Assembly: GCA_963664705.1 (NCBI GenBank)
Contig: OY761556.1
Coordinates: 704,001 to 768,000, forward strand
Direction: 5' to 3'
Length of the DNA: 64,000 nucleotides
DNA from: Acidobacteriota bacterium
GTDB lineage: Bacteria; Acidobacteriota; UBA6911
Position 1 is the first letter of the stretch. The number at the start of each line of letters is the position of its first letter. Under the pieces are notes generated by a model. The model had not been told where the DNA came from, ran no database searches, and was given only the letters and a program-made list of their open reading frames with translations. This document shows positions 4,643 through 26,832 of the stretch, in pieces. Made by a program: the position numbers and the translations under genes.

Positions 4643-4708
4643 AAGCTTCGGCTGACAAGCTGCCGTCTCGTGCCCTCAATCGACAGTCCCGGTACCTGCT
4701 TTTGAAAA

Positions 4709-5437: not shown

Positions 5438-5593
5438 GAAATACCCCGTTCGAATGGAAACGGTTGTAATGAAATACCGATTTCATTATTGCCAGGGGGA
5501 CGGAGATAGTTGTCGGCCGAAAGCATGTCAGGATTGGTGCGCGGGTTAACCCGCTCAGTTTGAGGACCATTCAGACATGTCCATGGCTTCCTA

Positions 5594-6226: not shown

Positions 6227-6531
6227 TTTTCTATCTCGCCCGGATGGATATGTCCTCGTGCGTAATCATGCTCGATATATTTGCAGCTCGTTGAATTCAA
6301 AGAGGGAGGGTAGTGCTAAGCTAATATCCTTTGTTTAAAAACTTAGGCAATTCCAAATAGAATATATCAAAGCGATATACATCTTGAACTTATGGTGCCA
6401 GTGAAGCCTGGGCGGTTCAAGAGTCATTAGAGGAAAATAATGGCAAGGCAGGGCTGGTATGTTCGCTCGAATGACAGGCCGTTCGGTGTGCGCTGGACCG
6501 GACCGCCTTACGAGAATAGATGTTGCTTTTT

Positions 6532-8757: not shown

Positions 8758-8996
8758 TTTGTCCTCAATTGGAAAAGTGTTTGCGGCGTCTTTTAAAGGA
8801 TCTGTCTTCTTCGAAAGATAGTCGCGAAACAGGCATCACTTGCGGGGAGGCTTGAATGGTAATTTTCCTATCGATCATTACGGGAATGCTCGAAAATATT
8901 GTGGACCGCCCTAAAATCACGTCCACGGGATAAACAACGCTAAAGAACCAACCCTTTCTCAACGAGGCAACAATGACAGATCTGGAAAAGTTCTTC

Positions 8997-9012
8997 TGTT
9001 CATTATTGAACA
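8997..9012. promoter_or_regulatory. Palindromic operator TGTTCATTATTGAACA, upstream of the FN3-repeat gene
   Basis: One mismatch to the copies at 13484 and 26817; minus-strand TGtCATTGT -10-like element 21 nt downstream. Confidence 0.7.
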
Positions 9013-9044
9013 TCTCTGGCATTTCCGTTATTGGCGGGGAGATT

Positions 9045-9821
9045 CTAGGGGCTGTCTGCCGGTTTAAACCCGCGGGCAAGAAAGTCCCGGATATTTGCCG
9101 CCAGCCTGCCAAAATCCCCGGAAGGAAGTGTTCGGGGGCTGTCTTTTAGCGATGGGAATTGTGTATACAGGTAATTTGTCAAATTCCGAATCTCAACCTT
9201 TCGCAAAATCAGATGATCGAATTCTCCTTGTTCATTTGCCCGGTTGTCATCGACCAGCATGCCCAGCGAGAGATTTATCTGGTTCGCTACAGACCGAAGA
9301 AGAGCCTGGCGCTTTGCCATCAAATCCGCGAACTGTTTTTGAGGTGACGGTCCGTTTATTTTGCGTATGGTCTTTTGCAAATGGATACCAAGCAACTCAT
9401 CGCTCATTTTGCCCAGGGCGTTGTACGAAGAAATGAGATCTCCTGCAATCGCAGCAATGGCAGGATCCTTACTGTGGTTGTAATAGGAAATGACAAAGGA
9501 TGCGCATGTGTTTTCTATGCGCTCTTCGCGCAGACCATTAATGGCTTTGTCCATATCATCCAGGGAGGCTCCGCCGGGTGTCTTGAGCATTCTGGCGTTG
9601 GCCTGTTCCCCCCGTTGCGCCAGCGACAAAGTTTGGATTTCGGCCCTTAGAAATGCATAAGGATTTTCAGGCTCCGCCGGATCCAGCAGATAACAATCTT
9701 CCGGCGGTTTCACAAAAGGCCTGATTCCGGGTCGTTGTTGCGCCCAGGCAGCATAAGGCCAGGGGAGCAGAACAAGGCCGATGAACAACCAAAGAGCTAT
9801 CGTTACACCACCGATTTTCAT
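9045..9821 (-). CDS. Hypothetical exported helical protein
   Basis: GGAGG SD before ATG 9821; signal peptide ending AWA; directly downstream of the FKBP gene. Confidence 0.65.
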   Translation of the reverse strand: MKIGGVTIALWLFIGLVLLPWPYAAWAQQRPGIRPFVKPPEDCYLLDPAEPENPYAFLRAEIQTLSLAQRGEQANARMLKTPGGASLDDMDKAINGLREERIENTCASFVISYYNHSKDPAIAAIAGDLISSYNALGKMSDELLGIHLQKTIRKINGPSPQKQFADLMAKRQALLRSVANQINLSLGMLVDDNRANEQGEFDHLILRKVEIRNLTNYLYTQFPSLKDSPRTLPSGDFGRLAANIRDFLARGFKPADSP

Positions 9822-9872
9822 GCGGGCCTCCATCTGCTCACAACATTGCCGACGTCCGCCATTTGCCATGGA

Positions 9873-10367
9873 TTACTGCAGCGCGATTAGTTCAACGTCA
9901 AATATCAGGGTGGCGTTTCGTGGTATAAGCGGCGGCACTTCGGTCGATCCGTAGGCAAGGTCGGGAGGGATTTTGATCTGTCGCCTTCCTCCTACCTTCA
10001 TTCCTTCGACTCCTTCTTCCCAGCCCGGGATAACTTGACTGGCTCCCAGTGTGAAAACGGGGAGCCGGCCATCGGAATACGAACTGGCAAATTCCCTCCC
10101 GTTTTCTACCCAGGCCTTATACTGGACCATAACCGTATGCCCCCTTCCTGCTGGCATTCCTTCACCTGTCAGGATGTCCCAATAGATTAAACCGGACGCG
10201 GTTTTTACCCCTTCGCCCGTCACTTTGGTCGGTCTTTCAATGTTGATAACGGACTGTTCCTGCGGGTTCAGCTTTCTTCGGAAATATCTCGATGCAGAAT
10301 GCTGCGATTGTGCCGGCAGGTCGGGGGCTGCCAATATCGCCAATACCAGGATCAAAATGCCGCGCAT
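9873..10367 (-). CDS. FKBP-type peptidyl-prolyl cis-trans isomerase, exported
   Basis: TASGLIY, QVIPGWEEG, IPPDLAYG, LIFDVEL motifs; signal peptide. Confidence 0.93.
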   Translation of the reverse strand: MRGILILVLAILAAPDLPAQSQHSASRYFRRKLNPQEQSVINIERPTKVTGEGVKTASGLIYWDILTGEGMPAGRGHTVMVQYKAWVENGREFASSYSDGRLPVFTLGASQVIPGWEEGVEGMKVGGRRQIKIPPDLAYGSTEVPPLIPRNATLIFDVELIALQ

Positions 10368-10388
10368 CCATCCTCCTTCTGGCAGGCG

Positions 10389-12002
10389 CTATGGGACGAT
10401 CCAATCTCCCTCCGGGATCAGGGTCCTTTCATCGGCGCCGCCGAATCTCACGATATATCCGCCCTTGGATGCAAAACGCTGCCCTGGGCCTAAGCTCAAT
10501 CGTGTGTAGTACCCATCAATCACTCTTGTGCTCAGCATGCCCTCTACATTTTCCACCAGATAATCGCGCAGGAAGTTGTCCAATACCTCATTCAGGCTCT
10601 CGGAGATTATGTTGCAGGCAATATAAGTGTCGACTTGTGTTTCTTCTGCAACGACCGGGATTTGCTGAATCCGAAACCATCCCAATGGATAATCGAGAAG
10701 GGCACCCCGGCGGGATGGTATTTCAAAAGGATAGGCCATATGAGCCACGCTTCGCCAGGAACCGGGAAGCGGAACATCGTCCAGCCCTCCCATTATTGCG
10801 GATAGAAATATGTGTGTTGCTTTCGGCGGTTCAGCCGGAAGCATTTTTAAGTCATCTGGCCGCAGCCACAAAATCAACACATCCCGAGGACGTGCTTTCC
10901 GGAGCGAATGCCTTATGAGCATTTGGCCCGGGGATGAGGGAAGAGGCTGGTCGATTACAGTAATGCCGTGAGCTGCACTCTCGGCATGAAAAGCCTTTGC
11001 GGCAGCGTCGCCCACATCATCTTTTCGGAAGACTTGCACAATGCGACGAGCGTTTTGTGGCGATGGCCCTCGGCTCAACTGCTGTGCAATCAACTGGGCC
11101 TCAAGCAGTACCCCCTTGGAGAAATAGAGATTGTAGAAGTCCTCCTCTGCCACAACCGGCAACTCCACATTGGGGAAGAAGCAGGGGATGGACTCCTGTT
11201 GGCAAAACTGATGAATGGGCTGCCAGTTTGCGCCTCCCATTCCGGAAAGAACCGCAAAAACAGGTTCGGCCTTGAGCTTCGCCCGCAATTGTTCCATCCA
11301 TCCTGTTGCGTCTCCGGACAGCTCCCAGATGTGCAGTTGCCATTTGCGGGGCACACGGTACATCATTTTGGTATATCGCGCTGGGGCTGGTATCGGGCGA
11401 TAGAAGACATTTTTTGCCGCAAAAAAATGCTGCAATACATCCAGCATGCCCTTTCGCTTTACCGGATCCGAATCAGGAGTGATGATGGTTGCGAAGTGCA
11501 GGGTATCCCCGGTAACACCTGGAACACTCCCGCTGGACAGGCTTGCGAGATAGGAAATCAGCGCGCTCATCGTGTCATTGTCAAGCGGATATCTTGGCAT
11601 GACATAGTTGAGCGGACGCCCGTCAGGAGTGATACCTTCACGAATCGCTTTTGCAAGAGTCTCGCCCGTGTAGGGTGGCCTATTAGGCGTTGTCCGCTCG
11701 GTGTGGTCCGTTGCTTCTCGCGCAAAAAGTCCTCCCGAACTGAAGAGATACTTCGCGGTAACAGGAGGGATCAGGGTTCCGCCTTCTACGCTGCCCATTC
11801 CGCTTGGCCGATGGCAGTTAACGCAGGCGGCTGTGGATCCGGAGATCGATCCGCCGCCCGGCCGTTGTGCGGTTACCTCTGCTCCCGAGGCAAGGATTCC
11901 TTTCCGGTACAGCACTTCGCCTTCGGTCAGTGCATTGGTAGCTGCCCATATCCACGCGACAAAGAGCACGATGCACGACACGAATATCAACGGAATGCGC
12001 AT
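10389..12002 (-). CDS. Monoheme c-type cytochrome fused to a periplasmic binding protein-like domain
   Basis: Signal peptide; CVNCH heme motif and MPRY distal-ligand motif; C-terminal PBP-like region ending RLSLGPGQRFASKG. Confidence 0.8.
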   Translation of the reverse strand: MRIPLIFVSCIVLFVAWIWAATNALTEGEVLYRKGILASGAEVTAQRPGGGSISGSTAACVNCHRPSGMGSVEGGTLIPPVTAKYLFSSGGLFAREATDHTERTTPNRPPYTGETLAKAIREGITPDGRPLNYVMPRYPLDNDTMSALISYLASLSSGSVPGVTGDTLHFATIITPDSDPVKRKGMLDVLQHFFAAKNVFYRPIPAPARYTKMMYRVPRKWQLHIWELSGDATGWMEQLRAKLKAEPVFAVLSGMGGANWQPIHQFCQQESIPCFFPNVELPVVAEEDFYNLYFSKGVLLEAQLIAQQLSRGPSPQNARRIVQVFRKDDVGDAAAKAFHAESAAHGITVIDQPLPSSPGQMLIRHSLRKARPRDVLILWLRPDDLKMLPAEPPKATHIFLSAIMGGLDDVPLPGSWRSVAHMAYPFEIPSRRGALLDYPLGWFRIQQIPVVAEETQVDTYIACNIISESLNEVLDNFLRDYLVENVEGMLSTRVIDGYYTRLSLGPGQRFASKGGYIVRFGGADERTLIPEGDWIVP

Positions 12003-12016
12003 GGAGGAAATCCTCG

Positions 12017-12601
12017 TTATCTGGCGGCCGCAACCTCACGGCGGACTTCGCTGAACAGCTGATCGGTGGTGGCAAATCCATCAAAACGAACCCAAGGCTT
12101 GTCTGCCGCAGGGCGCACTAGAATCACCGGCGCATGATTCATTTTGTCGCCGCGATAAACACCGAAAGCACGTGCCGCGGCAATAACCGCCTGTGTGGTC
12201 CCTGTATAGTGATGCCATTCGGATCCTGCATGCAATCTTTTTGCATAGGCTGCCAGGCGTGCAGGCGTGTCCTGTTCCGGGTCGATTGAAATAGAGAGCA
12301 TATGCACGTGATCCCGGTCCTTTCCCAGTCGGTCCTGGAACTTGGCGAGCGTCTGACTGATTATTGGACAGATCGAAGTGCAGGAAGTAAAGATGAAGGT
12401 CATCAAGGTTGGCCGGTCATCCCTGAGTTCATTTTGCAGCGTCACCTTTTCGCCATCATCTCTTACCAGTTCCACCTGGGGAACGACGTATTCCGCCGTT
12501 GAACGTTTTGCCCCCGTTTCATTTCCGCGCGCCATCGGTCCACTAAGGGCTGTGAATACAATAATCATAAGTAATGCTGTGCCGCTGGGACATCGGTTCA
12601 T
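12017..12601 (-). CDS. SCO1/SenC family copper chaperone
   Basis: FTSCTSICP (CxxxC), SISIDPEQDTP and downstream His (MNH). Confidence 0.92.
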   Translation of the reverse strand: MNRCPSGTALLMIIVFTALSGPMARGNETGAKRSTAEYVVPQVELVRDDGEKVTLQNELRDDRPTLMTFIFTSCTSICPIISQTLAKFQDRLGKDRDHVHMLSISIDPEQDTPARLAAYAKRLHAGSEWHHYTGTTQAVIAAARAFGVYRGDKMNHAPVILVRPAADKPWVRFDGFATTDQLFSEVRREVAAAR

Positions 12602-12614
12602 TCAAGGCCTCCCT

Positions 12615-13385
12615 CTAGTTTGCAGCACGGATGCCGGAATAATCCGGCTTCGCAAAAATGCTGTTTTCCAGATTCGGATTCAGATTAACTGTTTCGATCC
12701 TTATGTTGCGTGCAGGAACTACATTCTCAACCACCGTTTCCAAAACAAAAGGCATCATTAATCCGCCAACGGATCGATAGTCGCGATAGTTGATATAGAC
12801 CCTGTGTGGTTTTCCGTCGAGCATGCGCGGAAAACCCTCTACTCTGACTTCGAGAAATGTTTGGGCATCAATCCAGATATTTCGCACCTGATTATCCCTG
12901 GTTGTAAGCCTCAGCTTGTAGGCCGCGCGTTCTTCTATCGGCTCTACTCCTGCCAGTTCTATTTTGATGCCTTTAGTTTCATGGTCGATCAGGAGGCCAT
13001 CCAGTGCTTCTTGTTCCGTGGCACTTTGCATTTCGGCCTGGGTGAATGGTTCTACCTGCAGCCGATTCAGGAATGGACGTACCTTCCAGCCGTTACTGCC
13101 ATCATAGACCTGTAATGCGGTTTTTCCGGCAAACTCCAGTTCAAGCCTCGACATTCGAGGCCGTTTGAGTTTTAGCGTAAATGGCAGTTGAGCATTTTGT
13201 TTACCTCCGGCGTCCATTTTACCGGTCATGGTCATTGACTTAATTCCGCGCCAAGCTTGCAATCCACCTCGGGCAGCGATGTTCTTTTCCACCACCTGCT
13301 CTGCCGTCATGGTCTCTGCGAGAGCTGCATGGGCCGGTATTTCTATTGCTAAAGAAAGGCAAACCACAAGAAGCAGTTTGTGCAT
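12615..13385 (-). CDS. LolA-like outer-membrane lipoprotein-sorting family protein
   Basis: Signal peptide; AARGG..AW, YDGSNGW, WIDAQTFL, DYRSVGGLMMP motifs. Confidence 0.8.
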   Translation of the reverse strand: MHKLLLVVCLSLAIEIPAHAALAETMTAEQVVEKNIAARGGLQAWRGIKSMTMTGKMDAGGKQNAQLPFTLKLKRPRMSRLELEFAGKTALQVYDGSNGWKVRPFLNRLQVEPFTQAEMQSATEQEALDGLLIDHETKGIKIELAGVEPIEERAAYKLRLTTRDNQVRNIWIDAQTFLEVRVEGFPRMLDGKPHRVYINYRDYRSVGGLMMPFVLETVVENVVPARNIRIETVNLNPNLENSIFAKPDYSGIRAAN

Positions 13386-13483
13386 CTTGAATCACCTCCA
13401 AATGATCCTAAGCATTCACGATGTAAACAATCGATCACGAAAGCATCATCGCTAACAGTCTAGCCGGCGACAATACGGGAGGA

Positions 13484-13499
13484 TGTTCACTATTGAACA
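13484..13499. promoter_or_regulatory. Palindromic operator TGTTCACTATTGAACA, upstream of the LolA-like/SCO/cytochrome c/FKBP unit
   Basis: Identical 16-mer at 26817; minus-strand -10 TAGACT (13462-13457) 21 nt downstream. Confidence 0.75.
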
Positions 13500-13522
13500 T
13501 AATTCAATAAGCATAGGCATTT

Positions 13523-14053
13523 CTATTGCACCTCCAAACCCTCTGCCCTAAATAGGCCAATAGCCAGGGCAACTCGATCTCCTCGTTTTACCAGCCTTCC
13601 CTTATTGGAGAAAGCCATCCAGTAGAATTTCCCGGCCTCCGGATGATTGGTCTGGCGCAACTGCCCGATTTTATCCATGGATGGAACCACCAGTTGGACT
13701 CCAGCCCGCGGATCGATCAAAATCGGCTGATTGGTTTTTTCATTAAGCGGGGCGGCCTTGTCCGCGTCCAGGATACGATAGCTGAATCGAATGAGTTCGC
13801 CGGCTTCAGCCGTCCTGATTTGAAGAGAATCAATGCCCCAGACTCTGCTGTAATAAAGCTCCGCCCGTTTGGGAAATTGGGCGGAGCGATAGTGGCGGGC
13901 GTTTTTTGACGCGGCCGGCTGCAGGGCTGAGACCACGGATTGAGCTTTACAGGGTGAAATGAGCAGACCGCTGATTACCATTCCGAGAATCATTATTTTT
14001 GTATCATGTGTGAAGCGACGCTGGAACATGACAGGGTCTTCTCCTTTAGCCAA
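13523..14053 (-). CDS. Exported hypothetical protein of the MCO cluster
   Basis: Hydrophobic N-terminus; lies directly after the 3045-aa gene on the same strand. Confidence 0.7.
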   Translation of the reverse strand: MAKGEDPVMFQRRFTHDTKIMILGMVISGLLISPCKAQSVVSALQPAASKNARHYRSAQFPKRAELYYSRVWGIDSLQIRTAEAGELIRFSYRILDADKAAPLNEKTNQPILIDPRAGVQLVVPSMDKIGQLRQTNHPEAGKFYWMAFSNKGRLVKRGDRVALAIGLFRAEGLEVQ

Positions 14054-14079
14054 AGTTGAGGGCAGGCTTCCTGGCTAAT

Positions 14080-14117
14080 GCATAGAAGGAGCATCCATCC
14101 GGATGCCCCTTCTATGC
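14080..14117. terminator. Stem-loop after the giant gene (terminator or mRNA-stabilising hairpin)
   Basis: gcatagaagg-a-gcatcc/atcc/ggatgc-c-ccttctatgc inverted repeat; no clear U-tract. Confidence 0.5.
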
Positions 14118-14125
14118 GACCTCAC

Positions 14126-17100
14126 CTAAGGTGTGATTGTGAAACTCACATTGCCGCCGGATCCGCCGGGCGTGGTAACGCTTACGTTCCGCGTTGCATT
14201 GGATCCATTGATGTTGGCATTGGTTGCAATGGTGAACGTTGTTGTGATCGTGGTGCCATTGGCTGAAACCGCTAATGCTCCAACCGTTACGCCACTGCCG
14301 GATACATTCACCGCAGTGGCTCCCGTCAGGTTGGTGCCAGTCAATGTAACGTTGAATGCTACACCATTCCTTGCATGTGTAGCCGGACTGATGGCGCTTA
14401 ACGCCGGCGCTGGAGGAGCCGTCACCGTGAAATTCAAAGTGTTGCTGGTTCCTCCGGGAGTGGTGATGCTGACGGTCCTTGTGCCCTGGCCTCCATTGTT
14501 TCCTATGGGAATCACAAAGGTGGCGGTGGCCGTTGTGGCGTTGACAACGACAAGGTTGGTGACAGTGATTGCATTTGGCCCGCTACCTGAAACAGTCACC
14601 GATGTTGCTCCCGTCAGGTTCGTTCCAGTCAGGGTTACCGGAACACTGCTGCCTCGAGTGCCTGACGCAGGACTGATGCTTGTCAGGGTTGGGGCGGTAT
14701 TGCCTCCGCCACCAGCAGCCGAGCCCTGGATTTCGATGGCTCCGGCATCGGTGGTGTGTGGGTTTGCGCCTGGATCCGGCCTTGGATTGCCAAAAAAGTC
14801 GGTCCTTGGGGCTGTGATGGTCGGGCCATTGCCATCGGGAATTACCTGGCAGCCAACAGCTGCCGCATTTGCATTGGAGCACTCCACGAAATCAATGGCC
14901 GATGAACCCGATTGCAGCGAGTAATTGCCCAGCACTGCGTTGGTCACGGGGTTTACAAGAGACAGGGGGCCCCAACTCATGTTGATCCAGTTGTTGCCCT
15001 CATCCACGGTTGCGGCAGGAGTCAGGCTGAAAATTGGATTGGGCACCGTTGCATCGGAAATGCCCGGCGGGACCTGATAGCCCAGGCCACCGTTTTCCGG
15101 GGGAACTCTTGCCCCATTGCAATATTGCCTGATCACCGACGGATTACTATTTGCGTTGTGGCCATTGTAGCCTGCGATGCTCGTCAGCAGTGACCACTGT
15201 GCGTTCAGAGTGAATCCTGAACTGTGATTGGCGGGTCCGGTGTCGCCACGCACGCCGATATCCCAATAGTTTGACCCATTCACGCATTGGCCGGTTGCCG
15301 TTTGGCTTGCCGGTGCCGTTCCGGTTAACCCGTTGAGCAACGCGACCACGTTCTGCTGGTTGAGTGCCCCCGTTCCCAAACCTCCCACGTGAATGTCAAA
15401 CGTCCGGTTCTGCCAGAAAATATTGTCGTACAGAAGCGGATAGGAGATTTTGGTGCAGGTCCCATTCGTGGCCGTTCCGGAGTAATGACCTGCCGGGCAT
15501 GTAATGGGGCCGATACCGGCGAAGGAGGATACCAGCTGGGGGCTGTTTTGCAGCGATACCAGCCCCGCAGGTTGAGGACAGGAACCTGTGCCGTTAGCCT
15601 GCCCGGGGCAGTTGGCCGGTGGTGACTGCGAGCTTGCGAGTGGAGCTCCCAGTGTGTTGAAGAGAACACCTGCGGATGCGGTGCTGTCATTGGACATGAT
15701 CGTATTGTTCACGATGTTTACTGCCAACGAGTCTTCGAGCGAAATACCGCCGCCATCCCAGCCGGCCACATTATTGGCCAGAATATTGTTGGTGACAGCG
15801 ACAGAGTACCAGCTGGCGGGAGCACCCGGGAACCGGGCAACCTCGGTGCCATTGACCGCCTGGAAACGCAGTCCACCGCCGCTGCCGCTCTCCGCGCCAT
15901 TTCCCATGATGAGGTTTGCATTGATTACCAGACCTGGGCCGGCGCCATCGCCCAATCCCGGTACGCAATCGACGTCGGTCACAGTGCCGCATTCTGTGGC
16001 GACTCCATTGACGATCTGCGTGCCGTCAGGTGGAGCACCCATGACGATAATACCGCCGCCATTGGTCGGTATCGTCGGGTTGATACTTTGATTGAACAGG
16101 AACGTGTTGTGTTCAATGTCTCCGTTGTAGATAAAGCCGAGGTGTCCTAAGCCTCCGCCATCGCCAGTGCTCAGGTTGCCGCATACCCAGTTGTTGTTGA
16201 ACCGGTAGTAATCGGCTCCCGTGGTGAAACTTGCGCCACCCGCTCCGGCCGGTGTGGCCGTAAACAATTCATCACCAGTGGAGGAATTGTTAAAGATGGA
16301 ATTGTTGTGCACATTCGTGTGCAGGAAGAAGCAATAGGGTAATTGAGTGTTTGTGACCGTGCTGTCCTGGCAGGAACCGGGAGCGATGACTCCGCTGTTG
16401 GGTGCCAGGTAGGCATCCGTAAATTCGCCCTGCCCGATGCTTATCCCGCCGGATAGAGTGCCGGCATTGTTGTTGACCTGGTTGTTGGCGATCTGGAGGT
16501 TGTGTGCCCAGCCGTGCACCAGGATGCCGCCTCCGCCCTGGGAGCTGTTTGTGATTCCCAGCCCATCAATACTCGATGGATTGCATTGGAAGTTGCTGGG
16601 ATATGGATTGGACCCTCCTGAACTGCTCTTACAAATGGGATTGGTGTCACCCGACAGGAATATTCCTGAAGCTGTTCCCTGTCCGGAAAGCAGCGTGCTG
16701 CCGGCGGGAAAGTCTGCTTCCGCGCCGCTGCCGAAAACATCTGCGGCACCCTGTGGAATATTCACTCCCTTGGACAGGACCGTGATGGCTGCTCCTTCGT
16801 AAGCTCCCATCAGCGAGGGCTCCTGCAGCATTTCGGCCAGGTTGCCATTGAGCGTTGTATCCCATCCGACAATACCCTCTCTTGGAAGACGGTCGACCGC
16901 CATGAACGGGAAGCTGGGGCCTCCGGAGAAATAGCTCCAGGTGTTACCGTTTGGCCCAGGCTGTGAGTTTCCTGTGCCGTCCGGGCATCCGAAAGCGCCT
17001 GTGGAGTCAAAGGGGTTGGCATTGGTGCGTGGTTGGCCATTGAGCGCCAGGCCAAACAAGCAATTCACGCTGCGCCGCCATGGATCCAGCTTAGTAATTC

Positions 17101-20100: not shown

Positions 20101-23100
20101 CGGTGGTGATACTGCCACTCAATGTGTTGGTGCAGCTTGTGCCGGTGATTGTCGGGTCAGTCCCCGCACACACCCCCTTCAATCGCCCATTGATGATGGT
20201 TGGATTGGCAAAGCCTATCGATACGTGGTATCCGGCCGGTCCGTATTCTTGAAAGTAGGCCGGCTCTCCGATGCGAAGGAAAGAATCGTGAGCCTTCTGT
20301 CCATCCAGCGTGTTGGTTTGCATCCATTCTTCACCGCGCGCGATCCTGTCCGCCCCTGGAGTGGCAACCACTCCATATCTTCCGGGCATAAGATTTGCAA
20401 TGACTGCTTGCCCGGCCAAAGGCGATAGCGTTGTCCCGTCAGATTCGTATCGCGGACATGTGACAATCATGCCCGTAATGCCTTTTTGACTTCCGTTGCC
20501 GCCGGTTGCGTTGGCGGTGACTTTGGTGGAAATGGGACAGGCATCTTTTCCGGTTGCCGGGTCGATTGTTCCAGCAAGACTGTTCGACAACGGCATATTG
20601 AACATGTCATAGGTCATTTGCCCCGTGGCATCACCGGTGCCTCCGGCATCGTCAAAGAGAACAATGTTGAATCCACCCAGCCCCGGTTCGTTACTGGCAA
20701 GAACATCAATGCCGCCTCCGGCATCCTGCTCGCCGTTGAGCGGGAAATCGTCTTCAAATACCTGGACCGACAACTTGGCGGGCTGAAAAGGAGTGGGATT
20801 TGTAAGCACCGTAACGCTCGTTTGCCCCGCAGCAATAGGAGCGCCGCCCATGGCATGCCCACTCTGGGCATTTCCGGTGTTAAATGGATTGGCGGCGTCT
20901 CCCGGCAATATTGAAATGTAGTAGCGCTTGGTTGGATCGAGATGAACTTGACTGGGGTTGACCGGGGACTGTTGCGCCGCACCGGTTCGACAACTTCCGT
21001 TGCCGACGTCGCACACTGCCGGTAACCCCTGAAGCGTCTGTCCCGATTCGCATGCTATGGTGCCAATGCATCCCTGTGCGACTACCGGCATGTAGCTCGT
21101 GTGAAAGTTGGTTCCAAGCGTAGGAACAATTCCGGTCACGCCCTGTCCCGGGATACTTGCAGTCGGGCAGCCGGCGGGCGGCGGATTTACCTGGCATTTG
21201 GGATCGACATAGAAGGTGCGATCCTCTTCAATGATCCAGCGATAATCCGTCACGGGAGTGCTTTTGTTGGCACCGTCCAAAACGGTCACATTGAGACCGC
21301 TTGCCGTCGGGAATATTAGTGTCACGGTTGCGGCCACAGAGCTCACGGTTCCCTGCGAGTTTTGTGCAAAGTAGGAGAACGTATAGCTTCCAGAAGCGCT
21401 GACGGCAGCGGTGAAGCCGCCGTTGGAATCCACTGTAATCGTTCCCGAACCAGGACCGGAAAGGGTTGTTACACCTGCAGAATTGTACACTTTGAGCGGA
21501 TATCCCGCGGCGTCTTTATCCGCCGACAGGATCCCCGGAGGATTGATGCGGATGCCGGAGGCCAGATTGGAGGTGTAGGTGGCGTTCTGCATCAGGATGC
21601 CCGCGGCACTTTCAATAGGCGCCGGGCCTAATGTAACCGTTGTGCAGAGACCGCCCGCCGTTGCCCCGTTTGCGCAATATCCAAAAGCATCCGATGTCGC
21701 GGTTCCGGAGGGTATGTAAGTAAATGTGCCATTCTTGTTGAGGGTTACAGTGCCGCTGGCTGCCGGAGTCGATATCTGAACTCCATAGACATTGATATCG
21801 TTGGCGATCACGCCTCTGGAAGGATCCGACACTGTGAAGGTTTGCCCCGCAATCAGGGAATTGTAGGTGTCTGGTGTGACCGTAGCGGCAAACGTGTTTG
21901 GCAGCGTTGAACCGGGGATTCCGGTTGTCGAGCCTCCTCCGGCATTGGTAGTGCCGGCCAGATTTCCATTGATGCTTATATAGGCCAGCATCCCGCCGTC
22001 GCGTGCGGTAGAGTTGCCGGATAGACTCAGTTGGCGATCAAACACCGGGAGTGCCCGCATGGTGCACGTTGTCCCCGGAGTCGCAGGAGTGCATGTGGCT
22101 GGGCCGTCTATCATCACATCAAATGTTTTGCCTGCAGCCATGAAAACATCGCTTTGCACTCGGCCTGATCCAGGCAGGGTATTGCCGTCTTCGGCCATCA
22201 GTGTGAAGCCCGGACTTGATCCGGTGGAAGCCCCTACGATGGAGGGAACATGCATGCGCAATCCCGCATTGACCATGCGCACCAGGACACTGCCTGCGGC
22301 GCCTGTAACAGGCAGACTGGCAAAATTGGAAATAGCGGGATTGTTCTTATCAAAGGCCACTCCGTTGATCAGGTAATACAAAGGAGTATAGTTCACGGCT
22401 GGCGGATAGCACTGGTGATAAGTCGAGGAACTGGGATTGCCGCATCCCCCCGGTTGACCTGACCAGACCATGGTTTCGCTGAAGTTGGCCGTGTTCACCG
22501 CGGCATTCACAGCTGCATTTTGTACAGGATCGATTTCACTAAAGAGCAGCGGTATTTCCTGGTTGTACACAACCGCCGGATTACTGCCGGAGGCAGGATA
22601 GGCTGTGCCGGGGTTTGATCCGGCCGGTGCCGAAGTGACCACAACCATTCCATATAATCCCATGGGTCCCTGAATGGATGGGTGGGTGCCGGACTCGAGA
22701 AGGTACGTGCCCGGCCGCAAACTGCTCCATGTCAATGCGGTTGTCTGACCTGTCGCCACTTCGGTTGAGAAAGATTGAATGCGAGGGCTTTGTGCTGGCG
22801 GTGATGCTGAGACACCGGTGTTTGCAATCGGCCATGTGGCATTTGCCTGAGCATTCGTATGGCTTGGGCTGGGCGTGTAGGTCGCAGCGCTTCCCAAGCC
22901 CGCTCCGATCTGCCCCACAATTACCAGCGAGGTCGGAATACCCGCCAGGGCTCCCGGTGGAACAGGCAGGCTATTTGTCAAATTAACGGTCAGGCCTTGT
23001 CCGGTTGGAACGGTAATAACAACGGGAGACCAGTTCGTAGTTCCCTGGTTCAGTTTTGCGCATGTTGCCGTTGATCCGGTTACGGCGGGTCCGCAGCTAT

Positions 23101-23263
23101 ATCCCCACATGGGTACGGCTGAACCATCGGGCAAGGTAATGCTCGTGGTTGTGGCCGTCATGTTCACCTGTTGTTGTGCTTCTGCCGCAAGTGTTCCAAT
23201 GAACAGGAAAACAGCAGCCAGTGTCGCAATGCTCCAGTTTGTCCTTAATGCTCTCGATCCCAT
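14126..23263 (-). CDS. Giant secreted protein (3045 aa): two degenerate cupredoxin/MCO-like domains, Ig/cadherin-like repeats, SdrD-B-like domains, right-handed beta-helix, IPT/TIG domains
   Basis: Signal peptide; PGTYLLESGTHPSIQGPMGLYG and YYLING cupredoxin-type segments without His/Cys ligands; GGG-rich beta-helix repeats; TDFFGNPRP...DAGAIE; C-terminal PTLTSISP/PALSAISP IPT repeats. Confidence 0.8.
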   Translation of the reverse strand: MGSRALRTNWSIATLAAVFLFIGTLAAEAQQQVNMTATTTSITLPDGSAVPMWGYSCGPAVTGSTATCAKLNQGTTNWSPVVITVPTGQGLTVNLTNSLPVPPGALAGIPTSLVIVGQIGAGLGSAATYTPSPSHTNAQANATWPIANTGVSASPPAQSPRIQSFSTEVATGQTTALTWSSLRPGTYLLESGTHPSIQGPMGLYGMVVVTSAPAGSNPGTAYPASGSNPAVVYNQEIPLLFSEIDPVQNAAVNAAVNTANFSETMVWSGQPGGCGNPSSSTYHQCYPPAVNYTPLYYLINGVAFDKNNPAISNFASLPVTGAAGSVLVRMVNAGLRMHVPSIVGASTGSSPGFTLMAEDGNTLPGSGRVQSDVFMAAGKTFDVMIDGPATCTPATPGTTCTMRALPVFDRQLSLSGNSTARDGGMLAYISINGNLAGTTNAGGGSTTGIPGSTLPNTFAATVTPDTYNSLIAGQTFTVSDPSRGVIANDINVYGVQISTPAASGTVTLNKNGTFTYIPSGTATSDAFGYCANGATAGGLCTTVTLGPAPIESAAGILMQNATYTSNLASGIRINPPGILSADKDAAGYPLKVYNSAGVTTLSGPGSGTITVDSNGGFTAAVSASGSYTFSYFAQNSQGTVSSVAATVTLIFPTASGLNVTVLDGANKSTPVTDYRWIIEEDRTFYVDPKCQVNPPPAGCPTASIPGQGVTGIVPTLGTNFHTSYMPVVAQGCIGTIACESGQTLQGLPAVCDVGNGSCRTGAAQQSPVNPSQVHLDPTKRYYISILPGDAANPFNTGNAQSGHAMGGAPIAAGQTSVTVLTNPTPFQPAKLSVQVFEDDFPLNGEQDAGGGIDVLASNEPGLGGFNIVLFDDAGGTGDATGQMTYDMFNMPLSNSLAGTIDPATGKDACPISTKVTANATGGNGSQKGITGMIVTCPRYESDGTTLSPLAGQAVIANLMPGRYGVVATPGADRIARGEEWMQTNTLDGQKAHDSFLRIGEPAYFQEYGPAGYHVSIGFANPTIINGRLKGVCAGTDPTITGTSCTNTLSGSITTERMSRTPDERLYSSGDNSSFAFTQCYVSIGDPDGEDFAFAKCAGDGSFNIPGLPDGNWRVTVFDQWNDMLVDGLSTPVKLDHTVANSGNLGQIATNQWQANIYTNTFIDSNGNGLRDSNENGLTLVPTNIRFRDGSFSNFNNTDLDGNAGFNEVFPLFSWYVIETDATRYKNTGTHVVYDAGGPADGTPCGSASNPPTAPCGNSSIGQKMANTVEQVSLPTALRVPGAVYCAGADCIGKSISGVNGSNASDAPSTCTTNATTGVTTCTRTLSTGRIDPPWVTSEGWQGFSGQNSFIEFGKKPYAVGENGGIRGHVVYASTRPFDDPQLLLQTSWEPLVPGVTINLYQEGTAPDGSKSLKLIDTTKTSSWDDWAQGFYPGTNKPYMNCPGQQPAPTSGSAGDLFFFSLYNQPMWLDMYGNSGIPAHAMPNNSQFKCYDGMHNWNQVQPAPYDGMYQFPSVTGLDPNTGRPTGTNCDPTVCIPDPDTTDPYRHGLPMLPAGKYVVEIVVPPGYELVKEEDKNILIGDNYIAPVTQQFGPLANIFILPDQAAVAASYNASNAQNPTTDLGAFPRHEGDTGSVESFWPCVGEPRVVPDYISLFPQSREVAPFAGATRNLCDRKEVTLTDQASALAKFYIFTSTHAAAHFTGIITDDFTSEFDPFSPSFGEKFSPANLPVSIRDFNYNEISRTYSDQWGSYDGITYSTWEVNPPNPTGYAPTMMVTCMNDAGPIADPAHPGQTITDPLFNPGYSQFCYEIPFMPGQTQYMDTPVVPTSGFVGAGYNNPDCAFPASTPAISSVVNTSTEGSFPARTGPWVSAAGHSITITALGDQIVNNYGYSGPAAHTTPFNQKTVSRHYGFGTTQGTVSIGGVNVPSNQITTWNDTTIVLNVPSNVPLCDVQQQAQYGGSSAQCGELVITTAPSTAFPKGQQSVDAVTVTIGGKAPTAVAPGSTIQPYLDAAAPGDLIVVPPGTYNELLLMWKPVRLQGVGAASSIINANTHPAGITKLDPWRRSVNCLFGLALNGQPRTNANPFDSTGAFGCPDGTGNSQPGPNGNTWSYFSGGPSFPFMAVDRLPREGIVGWDTTLNGNLAEMLQEPSLMGAYEGAAITVLSKGVNIPQGAADVFGSGAEADFPAGSTLLSGQGTASGIFLSGDTNPICKSSSGGSNPYPSNFQCNPSSIDGLGITNSSQGGGGILVHGWAHNLQIANNQVNNNAGTLSGGISIGQGEFTDAYLAPNSGVIAPGSCQDSTVTNTQLPYCFFLHTNVHNNSIFNNSSTGDELFTATPAGAGGASFTTGADYYRFNNNWVCGNLSTGDGGGLGHLGFIYNGDIEHNTFLFNQSINPTIPTNGGGIIVMGAPPDGTQIVNGVATECGTVTDVDCVPGLGDGAGPGLVINANLIMGNGAESGSGGGLRFQAVNGTEVARFPGAPASWYSVAVTNNILANNVAGWDGGGISLEDSLAVNIVNNTIMSNDSTASAGVLFNTLGAPLASSQSPPANCPGQANGTGSCPQPAGLVSLQNSPQLVSSFAGIGPITCPAGHYSGTATNGTCTKISYPLLYDNIFWQNRTFDIHVGGLGTGALNQQNVVALLNGLTGTAPASQTATGQCVNGSNYWDIGVRGDTGPANHSSGFTLNAQWSLLTSIAGYNGHNANSNPSVIRQYCNGARVPPENGGLGYQVPPGISDATVPNPIFSLTPAATVDEGNNWINMSWGPLSLVNPVTNAVLGNYSLQSGSSAIDFVECSNANAAAVGCQVIPDGNGPTITAPRTDFFGNPRPDPGANPHTTDAGAIEIQGSAAGGGGNTAPTLTSISPASGTRGSSVPVTLTGTNLTGATSVTVSGSGPNAITVTNLVVVNATTATATFVIPIGNNGGQGTRTVSITTPGGTSNTLNFTVTAPPAPALSAISPATHARNGVAFNVTLTGTNLTGATAVNVSGSGVTVGALAVSANGTTITTTFTIATNANINGSNATRNVSVTTPGGSGGNVSFTITP

Positions 23264-23276
23264 TCGCTCTTCTCCT

Positions 23277-24935
23277 TCAATTTGTCTCGTCTATGACAAA
23301 TTCCCGGGAGTCAACCAGCATCATCATCAACATGCCGCCAGGGAAAATGTTGTTGGTCGTGATTTCGCGTTCGTTATGTGAGTGCCACATAAATGCGAAT
23401 CCAGCTTCTGAGGAGGGATTGTTGGCAATGGTTCCGGATGGGGGCGTTGTTCCTGTTGTAGCGCAGTTGTTTCCGGCGCAGGTTCCGTAAGTCGCGCGGG
23501 TGGTTGCGTCCGGACCCAGATAGGGACTGCCGCCGAACCAGGGCCCATTGGTTAACAGATTCGGATCAGGCAGGGTCATAGGTCCGCCTGCGCCCACATC
23601 ACCGAAAGGAGCCTTCTCCATTGGCTTGTTGTGGTCCTGGCACCATTCGTAGTAATTGATCGCCGTCGGATTCCCGGTGTTATATCCATTTGCATCAGGC
23701 GTGCAGGGAAGCTTGGCATTAGGATCGCTGGAGCCCGGCGTATGGCCGTACATATCCCAGTTCAATCCCTTTCCCGTGTAGTAGAAGATTCCATCCATTG
23801 CCTGACCGGGAGTAGTCGTTGTGGTAAACAATAACGGCCCTGCGAGAGCTTGAGTCGCGGCGCTTGAGCCGGCATAAGTGATTGTGGAGCTACTGAGGAG
23901 TAGATTGCCATCGCGTGCAAGAATGCGCACATGGTTGCCATGTTCATGGAAGGGATGCTGCCATCGTCCCTGCCCTACAATCCGAAGCAGAACCAACTCT
24001 CCAGGGTGCATATGTGGATCCCCGTTGTAGGGCTGATGGGGATATTGGATCGCATAATTAGCATCCATGTCGTCGGGCATCGAACGTCCGTTGATCATGA
24101 AATATGCAGGGTGATATGGTTCTGTTGCGATGTTGAGGCTGCATCCCGTGGCACCGGCCACGCAAGCGCCCAGTGCTGTTACCTGTGCCAAGGCTTGACT
24201 GTGAATGTCAGGATCGATCTCCGAGAATTGGAATAGGTATTCCCTGTCATAGCAAGTGTCGGGATGGTTGTAGGCGGCCTTGGTCAATCGAAAATCCTTT
24301 TCCCCCCAAAACGCTTCTGCCTGGAGATTTTTGGCAGCCAGTGTTCCGGTTGCGGTGCAGTTTTGCGGAATGGAATTTGGGAGCACAATGATCGCGCCGT
24401 ACAGGCCCATCTCAATCTGAAGGTCGCCCTGGGTTCCGCTGTAATAGGAGCGAGTCCCCGGCGTGGTGGCAGTGAATGTATAGGTGACGGTTCCACCCGG
24501 CGCGGCCTCCTGCGTCAGAAGTCCGGCCACGCCGCCGCTGGTGGATACCGCAAAACCCGGGAACAGGATCGATGTGTTTCCGGCCGAACTCGGCAGATTG
24601 TTGTGCAAGGTAATCGATACTGACTGCCCTTGATTGACAATCAGAGTGGGGCCCGGGACTTGCATGGCGCCGCAAAACGGATTGTTGGCCAGGTTCGCGG
24701 GGAGATAACCGGACGGCGTACTGTTGCAGCCATAGCCCCATGAATAAACGGACTGACCATCCGGCTGGCTGATATAGGCGTCCTGGGCCGTCAAATCGAA
24801 AGTACCTGCCGCGCTGGTTCCGGTTATGCCGGGGACTGCCGAATACGCTGGTGGCGTGAGGAGCAGGGCGGCTGTCAGGATGGTCAAAGCCAGTATCCAG
24901 GGGTATTCTTTTTTTATTCGCATCACTTTCATCAC
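23277..24935 (-). CDS. Two-domain multicopper oxidase-like protein B (His ligands only in domain 2, no type-1 Cys)
   Basis: PGPTLIV; domain 1 NTSILFPG and SYYSGTQ lack ligands; domain 2 QHPFHEHG and WHSH. Confidence 0.85.
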   Translation of the reverse strand: MMKVMRIKKEYPWILALTILTAALLLTPPAYSAVPGITGTSAAGTFDLTAQDAYISQPDGQSVYSWGYGCNSTPSGYLPANLANNPFCGAMQVPGPTLIVNQGQSVSITLHNNLPSSAGNTSILFPGFAVSTSGGVAGLLTQEAAPGGTVTYTFTATTPGTRSYYSGTQGDLQIEMGLYGAIIVLPNSIPQNCTATGTLAAKNLQAEAFWGEKDFRLTKAAYNHPDTCYDREYLFQFSEIDPDIHSQALAQVTALGACVAGATGCSLNIATEPYHPAYFMINGRSMPDDMDANYAIQYPHQPYNGDPHMHPGELVLLRIVGQGRWQHPFHEHGNHVRILARDGNLLLSSSTITYAGSSAATQALAGPLLFTTTTTPGQAMDGIFYYTGKGLNWDMYGHTPGSSDPNAKLPCTPDANGYNTGNPTAINYYEWCQDHNKPMEKAPFGDVGAGGPMTLPDPNLLTNGPWFGGSPYLGPDATTRATYGTCAGNNCATTGTTPPSGTIANNPSSEAGFAFMWHSHNEREITTNNIFPGGMLMMMLVDSREFVIDETN

Positions 24936-24942
24936 CGCTCTC

Positions 24943-26544
24943 CTAATTGATGTGGATCTCGGTCATCAGACCGCCGAAATTCTCCGCGTCGTTAGACAGG
25001 TGATCGAGGTTTGGGGTGTAAAGAAAGAAAACGCTGCCCGGGGGATACATCGTTGTGTCGGTTGCATCCAGGATTGCGTCAAGGGACTCTCCGCCGCCAA
25101 GCGTGATGGAATTGGTTTTATAGGACATGTTGTTCCCAGCCTGATCCCTCAGCAGCTTGGCGTTGTATCCAATGACAGTCATTGGGATCCCCAGGGAAGC
25201 CAGCGTCTGATACTCGCTGACGTCGAGATCGGAGATCCGCAGCAGAGCCTTTTTTCCTGCAGGAATGTTGATAATGGATGGGAGTGGTTGTGAATAATGC
25301 ATCGCTCCATCCGAGGAAACGGTTGCCAACGGTCCAGCCGTTACCGTGTCAGGATAGCTCCGCCCGTTCAGAAGAAAGTATTTGTCCTTCATATCGGCGA
25401 ACCCTTCAGGGTTAAAGGTCATTCCAACGAAGTGAAAATTGGGATCAAATCCGTGGATCTGGATCGGGTATTCCACATCATAGTAGGTAGAACCATCGCC
25501 ATCGTTATAGGCGTATTTCCCTCCTCCGGTCGCGCTTGTCTGCGCCGCAGGCAATGGATTGCTGCACAGAATATCTTCTGTGGAATCGCATTTTGTGCGA
25601 TTGTCCAGTTGCTGTTGCTGCAGGCCGGCAAACAGAGTGGTGGTGCTTGGGACGCGATTCTGCCGTGGCCTTACGAAGAGCTGGCCGACCATGCCCATCT
25701 GCAGGTGCTCCGGGGGCGTGATGTGGCAGTGCCAGAAATAGGTGCCGGCATCCGGCGCCAGGTAGTAATACGTGAAGCTGGCACCGATATTGATTGCAAC
25801 GGAAGCATCGGGAACACCGTCGTAGAAGGCGGAGGCATTGGGATAGCCGTGAAAGTGGACTGTATGCTGCTCGAATAGATCGGGCCGCATGATCATCCCT
25901 ACATTAGTGAGAGTCAGAAAGAACTCGTCATCTTCATCGATTGCCATGAGTGGCGCCGGTATATTTCCGTTCATCACCCCCACATCCATAATCGGACGCG
26001 GATCCACATGCCCATTGATAGTAGGGTTGCCTGCAGTATCGATGTTTTCAGAGTAGGTATCCGGGGTTAAGCCGACCGCGCCATTGTAGGTAAATGCTCC
26101 CAGCGTGCCGGGTGAGGCTCCGCTTGAGGCTCCGTTTGTTGTGGCAGGGTCACCGGGTTGCAGCGATCCAGGCGATACCGTGTTGAACGTACTGGGAAAC
26201 TGGGTGCCAGGTAGTCCGTTGGCAATATCTGCAAGCCCTGACAAAGGTCCAAAAGAGAACATGTATGTCTGGGTGCCGTCTCCCATCGTGGCGTATCCGT
26301 CACCGCCGGAAATCTGCTGACACTTAATTGCGCCATTGATATTTGCGGGAGTTGATGGATATCCATTGGTACCGGCATAGGTCGGGCCGGTGTATGCCGG
26401 TTCCGCATTGTTTGCAGCTGCATTGGGATGGGTGATGGTGGTACTGGGGCATTGCACCCTAAATGACTGGGCACTCACTACCCCGGACAGAAGAAACAAC
26501 AAAGCCAGGGATAGACCAAGTCGATGCTGCCTATTCGGGATCAC
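24943..26544 (-). CDS. Two-domain multicopper oxidase-like protein A (type-1 site and His ligands only in domain 1)
   Basis: QHTVHFHG and YFWHCHITPPEHLQMGM in domain 1; domain 2 lacks HxH motifs. Confidence 0.88.
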   Translation of the reverse strand: MIPNRQHRLGLSLALLFLLSGVVSAQSFRVQCPSTTITHPNAAANNAEPAYTGPTYAGTNGYPSTPANINGAIKCQQISGGDGYATMGDGTQTYMFSFGPLSGLADIANGLPGTQFPSTFNTVSPGSLQPGDPATTNGASSGASPGTLGAFTYNGAVGLTPDTYSENIDTAGNPTINGHVDPRPIMDVGVMNGNIPAPLMAIDEDDEFFLTLTNVGMIMRPDLFEQHTVHFHGYPNASAFYDGVPDASVAINIGASFTYYYLAPDAGTYFWHCHITPPEHLQMGMVGQLFVRPRQNRVPSTTTLFAGLQQQQLDNRTKCDSTEDILCSNPLPAAQTSATGGGKYAYNDGDGSTYYDVEYPIQIHGFDPNFHFVGMTFNPEGFADMKDKYFLLNGRSYPDTVTAGPLATVSSDGAMHYSQPLPSIINIPAGKKALLRISDLDVSEYQTLASLGIPMTVIGYNAKLLRDQAGNNMSYKTNSITLGGGESLDAILDATDTTMYPPGSVFFLYTPNLDHLSNDAENFGGLMTEIHIN

Positions 26545-26816
26545 GCAAACCTCCTTTCGACGGCAATAGCCGCCTTCGCATTACGTGCGTGTCGGAACAA
26601 GTGGTCCGTATGCAACGGCTCGAAGGGGATGGCAGCAGGAGATCGCCGCGTTGCTGTTTTATCCCTGCCGGGTTGTCTGAACTGAGACAGGTTCTCAAGC
26701 TAGAACTCCTTGCCGTACGGCAGTCGCTCCCTTGGCCAAACCGAGCTCAATAGAGCTGACATGCTCCTGAGAGCATGTTCATTGGGGTAAATGTAGGAGG
26801 ATTTGCGTGATTGTGG

Positions 26817-26832
26817 TGTTCACTATTGAACA
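26817..26832. promoter_or_regulatory. Palindromic operator TGTTCACTATTGAACA, upstream of the MCO operon
   Basis: Identical to the copy at 13484; minus-strand -10 TACATT (26795-26790) 21 nt downstream. Confidence 0.75.

Follow-up and report, generated by a model that had tools for sequence, protein, structure and literature searches.

A predicted Crp/Fnr regulon with class II promoter geometry over a multicopper oxidase island of an Acidobacteriota bacterium

The 64,000-nt stretch of Acidobacteriota DNA analysed here (the window) carries a minus-strand island of genes for multicopper oxidase (MCO) subunits and accessory proteins, three palindromic boxes with -10-like elements, and a gene for a Crp/Fnr-family regulator:

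26817..26832, Box 1, heading the MCO-A / MCO-B / giant / 176-aa unit; scores 22.0 with the family matrix, a tie for first place in the genome
26790..26795, minus strand, -10-like hexamer TACATT, gap 21 from Box 1; putative start near 26783
24943..26544, minus strand, MCO-A, two-domain MCO subunit; HFH at 230, HCH-x4-H-x2-M at 272
23277..24935, minus strand, MCO-B, two-domain MCO subunit; HEH at 330, HSH at 518, no HCH
14126..23263, minus strand, giant secreted-type protein, 3045 aa; first ~340 aa resemble MCO-B orthologues
13523..14053, minus strand, 176-aa conserved cassette protein; no Pfam family
13484..13499, Box 2, heading the LolA-like / SCO1 / cytochrome c / FKBP / 274-aa unit; ties with Box 1 for first place at 22.0
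13457..13462, minus strand, -10-like hexamer TAGACT, gap 21 from Box 2; putative start near 13450
12615..13385, minus strand, LolA-like protein; Pfam PF17131, below cut-off
12017..12601, minus strand, SCO1/SenC copper chaperone; CTSIC motif
10389..12002, minus strand, monoheme cytochrome c, 537 aa; CVNCH motif
9873..10367, minus strand, FKBP-type peptidyl-prolyl isomerase
9045..9869, minus strand, conserved 274-aa protein; genomes G033 and G133 likewise have homologues downstream of a box
8997..9012, Box 3, heading the FN3-repeat gene; exact match, score 18.0, fifth in the genome
8970..8978, minus strand, extended -10-like element TGtCATTGT, hexamer at gap 21; putative start near 8963
6532..8757, minus strand, fibronectin type III (FN3) repeat protein, 741 aa
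5594..6226, minus strand, 210-aa ORF without a family, lying between the genes for the FN3 protein and the regulator
4709..5437, minus strand, Crp/Fnr-family regulator, 242 aa; helix F R187-P-R-V-G-V192, likely box reader

No HxH motif occurs in the first 700 aa of the giant protein. The 537-aa cytochrome c is likely MofC-like, judging by the description in excerpts of PMC5566968 and not by alignment. A three-MCO cluster of Sideroxydans has the same accessory set of cytochrome c, SCO and FKBP proteins, and this cluster is likely the island's cassette, again matched by description rather than alignment; the source section on it gives no function or regulator. In G033, a box is followed by a SurA/DsbA-like gene and then by a homologue of the FN3 protein. 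Membership of the 210-aa ORF (5594..6226) in the regulon is uncertain.

The first-pass annotation had described three intergenic copies of TGTTCA-N4-TGAACA upstream of minus-strand units, each followed exactly 21 nt later by a -10-like hexamer. Exact matching recovered the same three sites in the window (8997-9012, 13484-13499 and 26817-26832), and TAGACT, TACATT and TG-CATTGT lie at the distance claimed. The genome scan that it had also called for (6,894,879 bases) returned only three exact 16-mers, all in the oxidase island, against about 0.5 expected from hexamer counts. All three boxes lie between genes of the same (minus) strand, 24 nt past the stop of the 176-aa gene (13484), 33 nt past that of the 274-aa gene (8997) and 144 nt past that of a YfhO-like gene (26817); the sole ORF overlapping the 8997 site is a 115-aa frame with a TTG start and without a Pfam match. 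A 5-6-5 dyad spacing and a centre at -41.5 are typical of Crp/Fnr class II activation, and E. coli CRP class II promoters have the site centre at this position. The 16-bp dyad lies near -41.5, with 21 nt to the -10 hexamer, at all three window sites, and the -35 elements are poor: at a 17-nt spacer they match TTGACA at 2/6, 1/6 and 0/6 positions (sites 8997, 13484 and 26817), and at no more than 3/6 with spacers of 16-18 nt. The hexamer of Box 3, CATTGT at 8975-8970 on the minus strand, has C instead of T at position -12 and a TG two bases upstream. A sigma-70 consensus scan of 4500-14300 found no promoter at the two boxes inside it (8997 and 13484). The 239-nt leader of MCO-A was also considered as the seat of a riboswitch or a conserved RNA, and this idea was rejected: Rfam gave no match at gathering score and one at chance level, the folding z was -1.0, and a comparison of four MCO-A leaders revealed nothing conserved except the box and the -10. 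No RNA run was listed among the sequencing runs that carry this DNA, and contigs of X5 and X1 covering 4000-14500 offered near-identical DNA only (X1 may be the source itself), which precluded footprinting.

The regulator, encoded at the end of the island (4709-5437), has a cNMP-type barrel (cNMP_binding, PF00027, 44 bits) and a Crp-type helix-turn-helix (HTH_Crp_2, PF13545, 39 bits), both over cut-off, placing it in the Crp/Fnr superfamily. Its structure model (pLDDT 82.6, pTM 0.56) puts helix F at residues 187-199 and matches the GlxR/CRP fold; the fold search returned generic CRP-like matches only and no effector clue. It is the only member of its clade in the 6.9-Mb genome and, in a quick tree, groups with cassette-linked regulators (support 98), on a long branch of its own (0.95). 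The frame and helix F are intact, although two near-invariant family residues have changed (R129 to K and R148 to L). C67 and C82 are invariant in the clade and are its only conserved cysteines. No box precedes the regulator gene itself.

We then considered 80 metagenome loci chosen by the regulator protein alone. Around these relatives, most of which have a helix R-P-R-I/V-S, TGTYCAATATTGRACA occurs 96 times in 393 kb, at 56 of the 80 loci, compared with nine occurrences in 1.59 Mb of cassette loci lacking this clade and three in the reversed loci; many of the 24 loci without a box are only 1-2 kb long. Of 74 non-redundant sites, 45 have TAnnnT at gap 21 and 29 lack it there, whereas the remaining gaps between 0 and 38 account for 0-4 sites apiece, which supports the class II geometry proposed earlier. 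The family box is a 16-bp palindrome with a conserved centre, TGTYCA-ATAT-TGRACA, with A6/T11 in 182 of 192 half-sites; the spacer first written as N4 is thus conserved rather than free. The 80 loci contain 83 Crp-type genes, 81 of them with Arg at helix position 3, and at least 77 loci have no second Crp-type gene. With a matrix trained on these loci, the window sites come first, second and fifth genome-wide, but the matrix retains some dependence on the window, since its seed was picked after matches to the window motif had shown in the same loci. Four of its 120 matches have a -10 at gap 21, namely the three window sites and one weak match in a coding region. The other 11 matches scoring at least 15 (e.g. 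8287, in the FN3 gene) all fall within coding frames, lack a -10 at that gap and were rejected as further regulon members. A sister R-S-R clade accompanies similar boxes, so the box is not unique to the R-P-R clade.

The box also recurs at related cassettes. There are six sites in G033, three in G133 and one each in G034 and G127; at each of the 11, YAnnnT (TAnnnT in nine) follows at gap 21 in the direction of a gene, and the genes behind them are MCO-A, the LolA unit, the SurA/DsbA-FN3 unit, the giant gene or the regulator. In the three related genomes with the regulator in the oxidase cassette (G033, G133 and G034), a box is present at cassette promoters, in line with the single shared Crp/Fnr activator that the first-pass annotation had inferred. 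No site was found in the cassettes of G005, G010, G021, G130, G120 and G122, where the clade is not nearby, although the G120 stretch stops at a contig end and may miss the promoter. The box tracks the R-P-R gene, occurring at 4/4 cassettes with it versus 0/6 without, these being few cassettes from related genomes that are not independent samples. The second copy in G133 lies in 39.8 kb of sequence that lacks the box.

Conservation upstream of orthologous clusters, another expectation of the first-pass annotation, therefore holds in G033, G133 and the related G034, but not farther afield: 80 distant orthologous MCO-A loci contain no exact motif anywhere and none with up to two mismatches within 1 kb upstream. 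This absence was initially taken as a refutation, a view dropped once an apparent regulator swap was recognised; the box is missing there because those clusters carry other regulators. An NnrR-like box, TTTGC-N6-GCAAA, is present at 35 of the 80 loci, and the regulators adjoining distant cassettes lack R180 and have a helix of the T-L-F-T-V-S-R type. When the 600 nt upstream of MCO-A were scanned at 80 loci, two contained a strict sigma-54 pattern, and the G005 cassette combines a sigma-54 response regulator with a -24/-12-like site. In other lineages the cassette sits with NnrR-like, sigma-54 or LuxR-type regulators, and it appears, from these sequences, to have swapped regulators.

How does this pair of box and regulator compare with known systems? 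FNR recognizes TTGAT-N4-ATCAA and carries a four-cysteine Fe-S motif; here the box is a different one, C67 and C82 are the only cysteines conserved, and no FNR model is among the NCBIfam matches. The cAMP pocket of CRP is marked by G71, E72, R82, S83, T127 and S128. With positions mapped by offset from the alignment, the window regulator keeps G79, E80 and R89 but has L90, Q133 and L134 in place of S, T and S, so that its signal is probably not cAMP. E. coli CRP binds TGTGA-N6-TCACA through helix R180-E-T-V-G-R185 (excerpts of PMC10187061). The window system resembles it in fold and domain order, in a 16-bp dyad with TGT...ACA ends centred at about -41.5 and in keeping R180. It is nevertheless not CRP proper: P and V replace E181 and R185, TTCA/TCCA replaces GA-N (positions 4-5 of the box differ), the ATAT centre is conserved, and the CRP NCBIfam model scores 53.6 bits against a cut-off of 266. 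Clr of Sinorhizobium meliloti (helix R195-P-K-V-N-R200, box HGTYHC-N4-GRWACA; excerpts of PMC10187061 and PMC10127613) likewise begins helix F with R-P and a basic third residue, and the window sites fit the first Clr box, TGTT-N8-AACA. However, the helix reads R-P-R-V-G-V in the window regulator, and the Clr core requires C6/G11 (GTNNC-N4-GNNAC) whereas all three window boxes have A6/T11; on both counts the protein does not qualify as Clr (cluster G). Clr also binds cAMP/cGMP via T140/T141 where the window regulator has Q/L, and the match to the Clr structure 7PZA reaches only 29 bits. With MrpC of Myxococcus xanthus the likeness is one of boxes: its motif TGTYN8RAC (excerpts of PMC4320627) fits the three sites and the family consensus, but leaves free the inner eight bases that are conserved in our family, and MrpC is a global developmental regulator whereas the window regulon comprises three promoters. 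According to the excerpted text of PMC1274295, HcpR2 recognizes GTAAC-N4-GTTAC with E181 replaced by Pro, and NnrR recognizes ctTTGcg-N4-cgCAAag. HcpR2 shares the R180/P181 rule with the window regulator but differs in its box at positions 4-6, and the targets are nitrosative-stress genes; the NnrR consensus matches the box of the distant cassettes, a likeness by box.

Taken together, these data indicate that the 4709-5437 protein most likely reads the three boxes, and very probably the island's own regulator binds them as a dimer and co-activates the three promoters in class II fashion. The sites might instead be genuine class II sites read in trans by one of the genome's four other Crp/Fnr proteins or an unrelated factor. 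A protein at genome position 4,792,828 (helix R-S-T-V-S-L) also keeps R180, without E181, and two matrix matches (18.6 and 16.9) are found less than 10 kb away, but both sit in coding frames and have no -10 at gap 21; this, the tracking of the R-P-R gene by the cassette box and the absence of a second Crp-type gene at nearly all family loci make a trans reader improbable. Crp/Fnr proteins can repress, and the box edge overlaps the -35 position, so the same protein could block otherwise active promoters; yet at the 17-nt spacer there is hardly a -35 to block, and a repressor needs no distance exact to one base such as most family sites keep, so that repression is very improbable.

That the regulon is a relic, its boxes having arrived with the island while the local regulator decays, draws on the two substituted residues and the long branch, but R148L is shared by P0002, P0003 and P0008, the frame and helix F are intact, and the boxes keep perfect half-sites and spacing amid leaders without conserved sequence; we give this only a very small chance. 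Finally, since two sites lie shortly past a stop codon, the palindromes could be RNA hairpins (terminators or repeat elements) following upstream genes. Their arms are A/T-rich and only 6 bp long, the two inside 4500-14300 are absent from the terminator-like list for that region, and family variants (TGTCCA..TGAACA, TGTTCA..TAGACA) break pairing while keeping the -10 distance, all of which makes hairpins extremely improbable.

On activation by the island's own regulator, the dimer would dock on the boxes 21 nt upstream of the -10-like hexamers heading three gene units. Following the recognition code in excerpts of PMC10187061 and PMC1274295, R187 (CRP R180) would read the G of TGT, Pro for E181 and Val for R185 would lift the constraint on the fourth base, much as Clr and HcpR2 do, and R189 would probably read the inner C:G pair. 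At -41.5 the dimer would touch RNA polymerase and stand in for the missing -35. As it would activate all three promoters, one signal may switch on the oxidase subunits, the copper, heme and folding helpers and the FN3 protein together. Our best guess for this signal is a general-stress or redox cue, acting via C67 and C82 or via the regulator's own level, at about even odds. A clade that precedes stress-type genes elsewhere seems to have been recruited to the cassette.

More tentatively, the cassette could be a widespread, uncharacterised extracellular copper-oxidase machine that has been repeatedly re-wired, at least four regulator types having each come with matching promoter sites: R-P-R Crp/Fnr with TGTYCA-ATAT-TGRACA, NnrR-like Crp/Fnr with TTTGC-N6-GCAAA, a sigma-54 activator and a LuxR-type response regulator. 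The R-P-R clade might then sense redox state or metals through its cysteines and serve extracellular electron-transfer genes exclusively, given that a cytochrome-porin (Cyc2-like) operon of G125 also has the clade's box in front of it.

In the literature searched, which lay outside subscription journals, RegPrecise and supplements, we found no paper with the box, the helix strings or an Acidobacteria Crp/Fnr motif, and excerpts of PMC3590769, PMC12531629 and PMC9603854 (RedB, non-palindromic motif) do not describe the box. The present work provides an unstudied Crp/Fnr clade with a DNA box and a type of promoter, and adds a point to the family recognition code, R-P-R reading TGTYCA. It also opens a way into an oxidase cassette that is common in soil bacteria: the regulator's signal, or an active form of the regulator, would reveal when the cassette is used and let its product be made. 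With regulator and site changing as a pair, this one cassette offers a natural experiment in promoter rewiring.

The 16-bp palindrome TGTTCA-N4-TGAACA (the box) was found by pattern search as three exact matches in the window, and these are the only three in the whole 6.89-Mb genome, where about 0.5 would be expected; the same half-sites separated by any other spacer of 0-20 nt give 0-2 scattered matches each. All three boxes lie between minus-strand genes, and a -10-like element follows each of them at exactly 21 nt (gap 21). Together with the nearby Crp/Fnr gene, the features are as follows.

26817: box 1, then TACATT on the minus strand; downstream unit of two two-domain multicopper oxidase genes (MCO-A, MCO-B), a 3045-aa giant and a 176-aa protein
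13484: box 2, then TAGACT on the minus strand; downstream unit of a LolA-like protein, SCO1, a monoheme cytochrome c, FKBP and a 274-aa protein
8997: box 3, then TGt-CATTGT on the minus strand; downstream unit encoding an FN3-repeat protein
4709-5437: Crp/Fnr gene, at the far end of the oxidase island

The first-pass annotation had placed three boxes upstream of minus-strand units with a -10-like hexamer 21 nt away, all of which was reproduced from the window sequence; its arithmetic, with the dyad centre at -41.5 and predicted starts near 26783, 13450 and 8963, is correct. The -35 is weak, with 0-2 of 6 positions agreeing with the consensus. A family matrix, whose independence from the window is limited since its seed was picked after matches to the window motif had been seen, puts the window sites at ranks 1, 2 and 5 genome-wide. 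Among the 120 genomic matches scoring at least 9, only the window sites and one weak coding match keep a -10 at gap 21, so the regulon in this genome comprises three promoters; the reversed genome, used as a control, gives seven weak matches with such a -10. We consider this predicted three-promoter Crp/Fnr regulon of the oxidase island to be real and well supported.

Within the oxidase genes at 14126-26544, the motifs HFH and HCH-x4-H-x2-M of MCO-A are confined to its first domain, MCO-B carries HEH and HSH, both in its second domain, and the MCO-like start of the giant has no HxH motif. This division of copper ligands over MCO-A and MCO-B would fit a three-subunit oxidase sharing one copper cluster. 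Three tandem extracellular MCO genes accompanied by mofC-like and SCO genes are described in Sideroxydans, the accessible part of the source giving no function for them (PMC5566968); compared by description, this cluster probably corresponds to the cassette of the window. The cassette's nearest homologues, the closest Atlas cluster and an Acido-Lenti-1 RNA in a genome of the same family make an acidobacterial host likely. Elsewhere the window's genome encodes one more FN3-repeat protein (C1:3,710,247-3,714,116), a longer paralogue that lacks a box. The window also holds, at 45616-51955, a second multicopper oxidase of the OmpB/MofA type (1359 aa, with FN3, no box upstream), a PEP-CTERM protein and a CusB-like gene with a YHS domain; OmpB-like and CusB-like genes likewise occur near the cassette in the related genome G133, and CusB-like genes in G034, G130, G120 and G122. 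The sulfate uptake and assimilation cluster at 34415-45375, which includes genes for siroheme synthesis and for a divergent sulfite/nitrite reductase, and the FMN riboswitch at 53544-53667 (98.9 bits), which precedes the ribBA gene at 53806, are ordinary.

Helix F of the regulator, R187-P-R-V-G-V, aligns to R180-E-T-V-G-R of CRP. According to the accessible parts of two sources (PMC10187061, PMC1274295), R180 reads G2, and E181 and R185 read G4; retention of R180 and loss of the other two thus predict TGT with a free fourth base, with which the boxes agree. Clr, with helix R-P-K, needs C6, whereas the window and family boxes lack it; the boxes also fit the MrpC motif TGTYN8RAC, which is looser. 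In a quick tree, the window regulator, the cassette-linked regulators and a metagenome set form one clade (R-P-R; support 98), sister to an R-S-R clade and separate from the four further Crp/Fnr proteins that the genome encodes, with long branches that leave the deep order unsure. The window regulator is the sole member of its clade in the genome.

Close relatives of this regulator occur in 6 of 137 genomes of the class, within or adjoining the oxidase cassette in G033, G133 and G034 and next to cassette genes on short contigs in G125 and G127. The exact box is present in 10 of 60 related genomes and several times adjoins Crp/Fnr genes with R-x-R helices. In the stretches of G033, G133, G034 and G127 the family matrix gives 11 sites scoring at least 10.5, and every one of them has, at gap 21 and directed towards a gene, a YAnnnT hexamer, which in nine cases is TAnnnT. 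These sites precede the following genes.

MCO-A: G033 (twice), G133
176-aa/LolA unit: G033, G133
SurA/DsbA-like gene: G033 (then FN3), G133
regulator gene itself: G033, one copy
outer-membrane barrel: G033, G127
giant gene: G034

Additional pattern matches lie upstream of the 274-aa homologue in G133 (CACTAT at gap 22) and of an operon in G125 (L273:637-3816; TAAAAT at gap 21). The first product of the latter, 459 aa long, bears an N-terminal FARK..CxxCH motif, has no Pfam match and no homologue in the window's genome, and we take it to be a Cyc2-like cytochrome-porin; a two-domain cytochrome c and a carboxypeptidase-regulatory-like protein follow. In the G033 C8 cassette (L134, L135), which has a regulator copy on each flank, many genes look frameshifted, through sequencing error or decay.

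None of the six cassettes without the R-P-R clade (G005, G010, G021, G130, G120, G122) has a box, the G120 stretch being possibly cut short. The G005 cassette comes with a response regulator of the sigma-54 type and has a -24/-12-like site upstream; that of G010 has a divergent LuxR-type regulator. In the related genomes, the box is therefore found at the cassette only where an R-P-R gene accompanies it, a pattern among kin rather than a statistical test. G005, G021 and G130 carry R-S-R genes away from the cassette, and some of these genes are themselves preceded by a similar box at gap 21, so this box type is common to the wider R-x-R group. Such boxes occur at L262, L266 and L268 (G021, G005), L127-L130 and L140; in L266 and L268 a box at gap 21 precedes the R-S-R gene, suggesting positive autoregulation.

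At the 80 loci with the closest MCO-A relatives (L001-L080), the exact box is absent, as are variants with up to two mismatches within 1 kb upstream. Conservation at orthologous clusters holds at the G033 and G133 cassettes, as well as at the related G034 cassette, and fails at these distant loci. When dyads were counted without bias in the upstream regions of the distant loci, another 16-bp dyad emerged, TTTGC-N6-GCAAA, which agrees with the NnrR consensus in the accessible part of PMC1274295. With one mismatch it occurs at 46 sites in the 700-nt regions upstream of MCO-A (55.9 kb in total), spread over 35 of the 80 loci, and 45 times in the remaining 1.54 Mb; TAnnnT follows 15 of the 46 at gap 20-21. 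A Crp/Fnr gene of another clade, without R180, is present in 13 loci, 11 of which have this box with a -10, versus 18 of the other 67.

The third test set comprised 80 metagenome loci of regulator relatives (80 of 549 confirmed), chosen by protein alone. TGTYCAATATTGRACA with up to three mismatches matches 96 times in 56 of these loci (393 kb), against nine times in the cassette loci (1.59 Mb) and three in the reversed regulator loci. TAnnnT lies at gap 21 in 45 of 74 non-redundant family sites with full flanks, and in at most four at any other gap. G2, T3, A6, A7 and T8 are kept in 168-187 of 192 half-sites, and conservation of A7 and T8 indicates that the centre belongs to the box: the half-sites as first read are exact, but the central N4 is not free. 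Genes behind family boxes elsewhere encode a fatty-acid desaturase, CarD-like, transglycosylase-associated and YflT-like proteins, dodecin, an anti-sigma-antagonist and response regulators. In L151-L230, G(A/C)AA often directly follows the downstream arm, an A/T-rich tract, likely an UP-like element, often lies upstream, and many boxes are 40-70 nt past the regulator's stop codon.

A regulator dimer would bind the boxes at -41.5, recruit RNA polymerase and co-activate the genes for the oxidase subunits, the maturation helpers and the FN3 protein. Read-through from the FN3 promoter into the regulator gene, should it occur, may create a feedback loop; in G033, a box precedes one regulator copy. 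The cAMP pocket is half retained (G79, E80 and R89 present; L90, Q133 and L134 instead), and cAMP is an unlikely signal. C67 is kept in 81 and C82 in 82 of 83 relatives; at two positions that are Arg in almost every relative, the window regulator has other residues (K129, L148). Our guess, with about an even chance of being right, is general stress or redox, acting via the cysteines or via regulator level. The class II Crp/Fnr regulon is a known design, and no paper describing this box or helix was found in open-access full text. What these comparisons would add is an R-P-R clade tied to the oxidase cassette, with regulator and site apparently exchanged as a pair across lineages.
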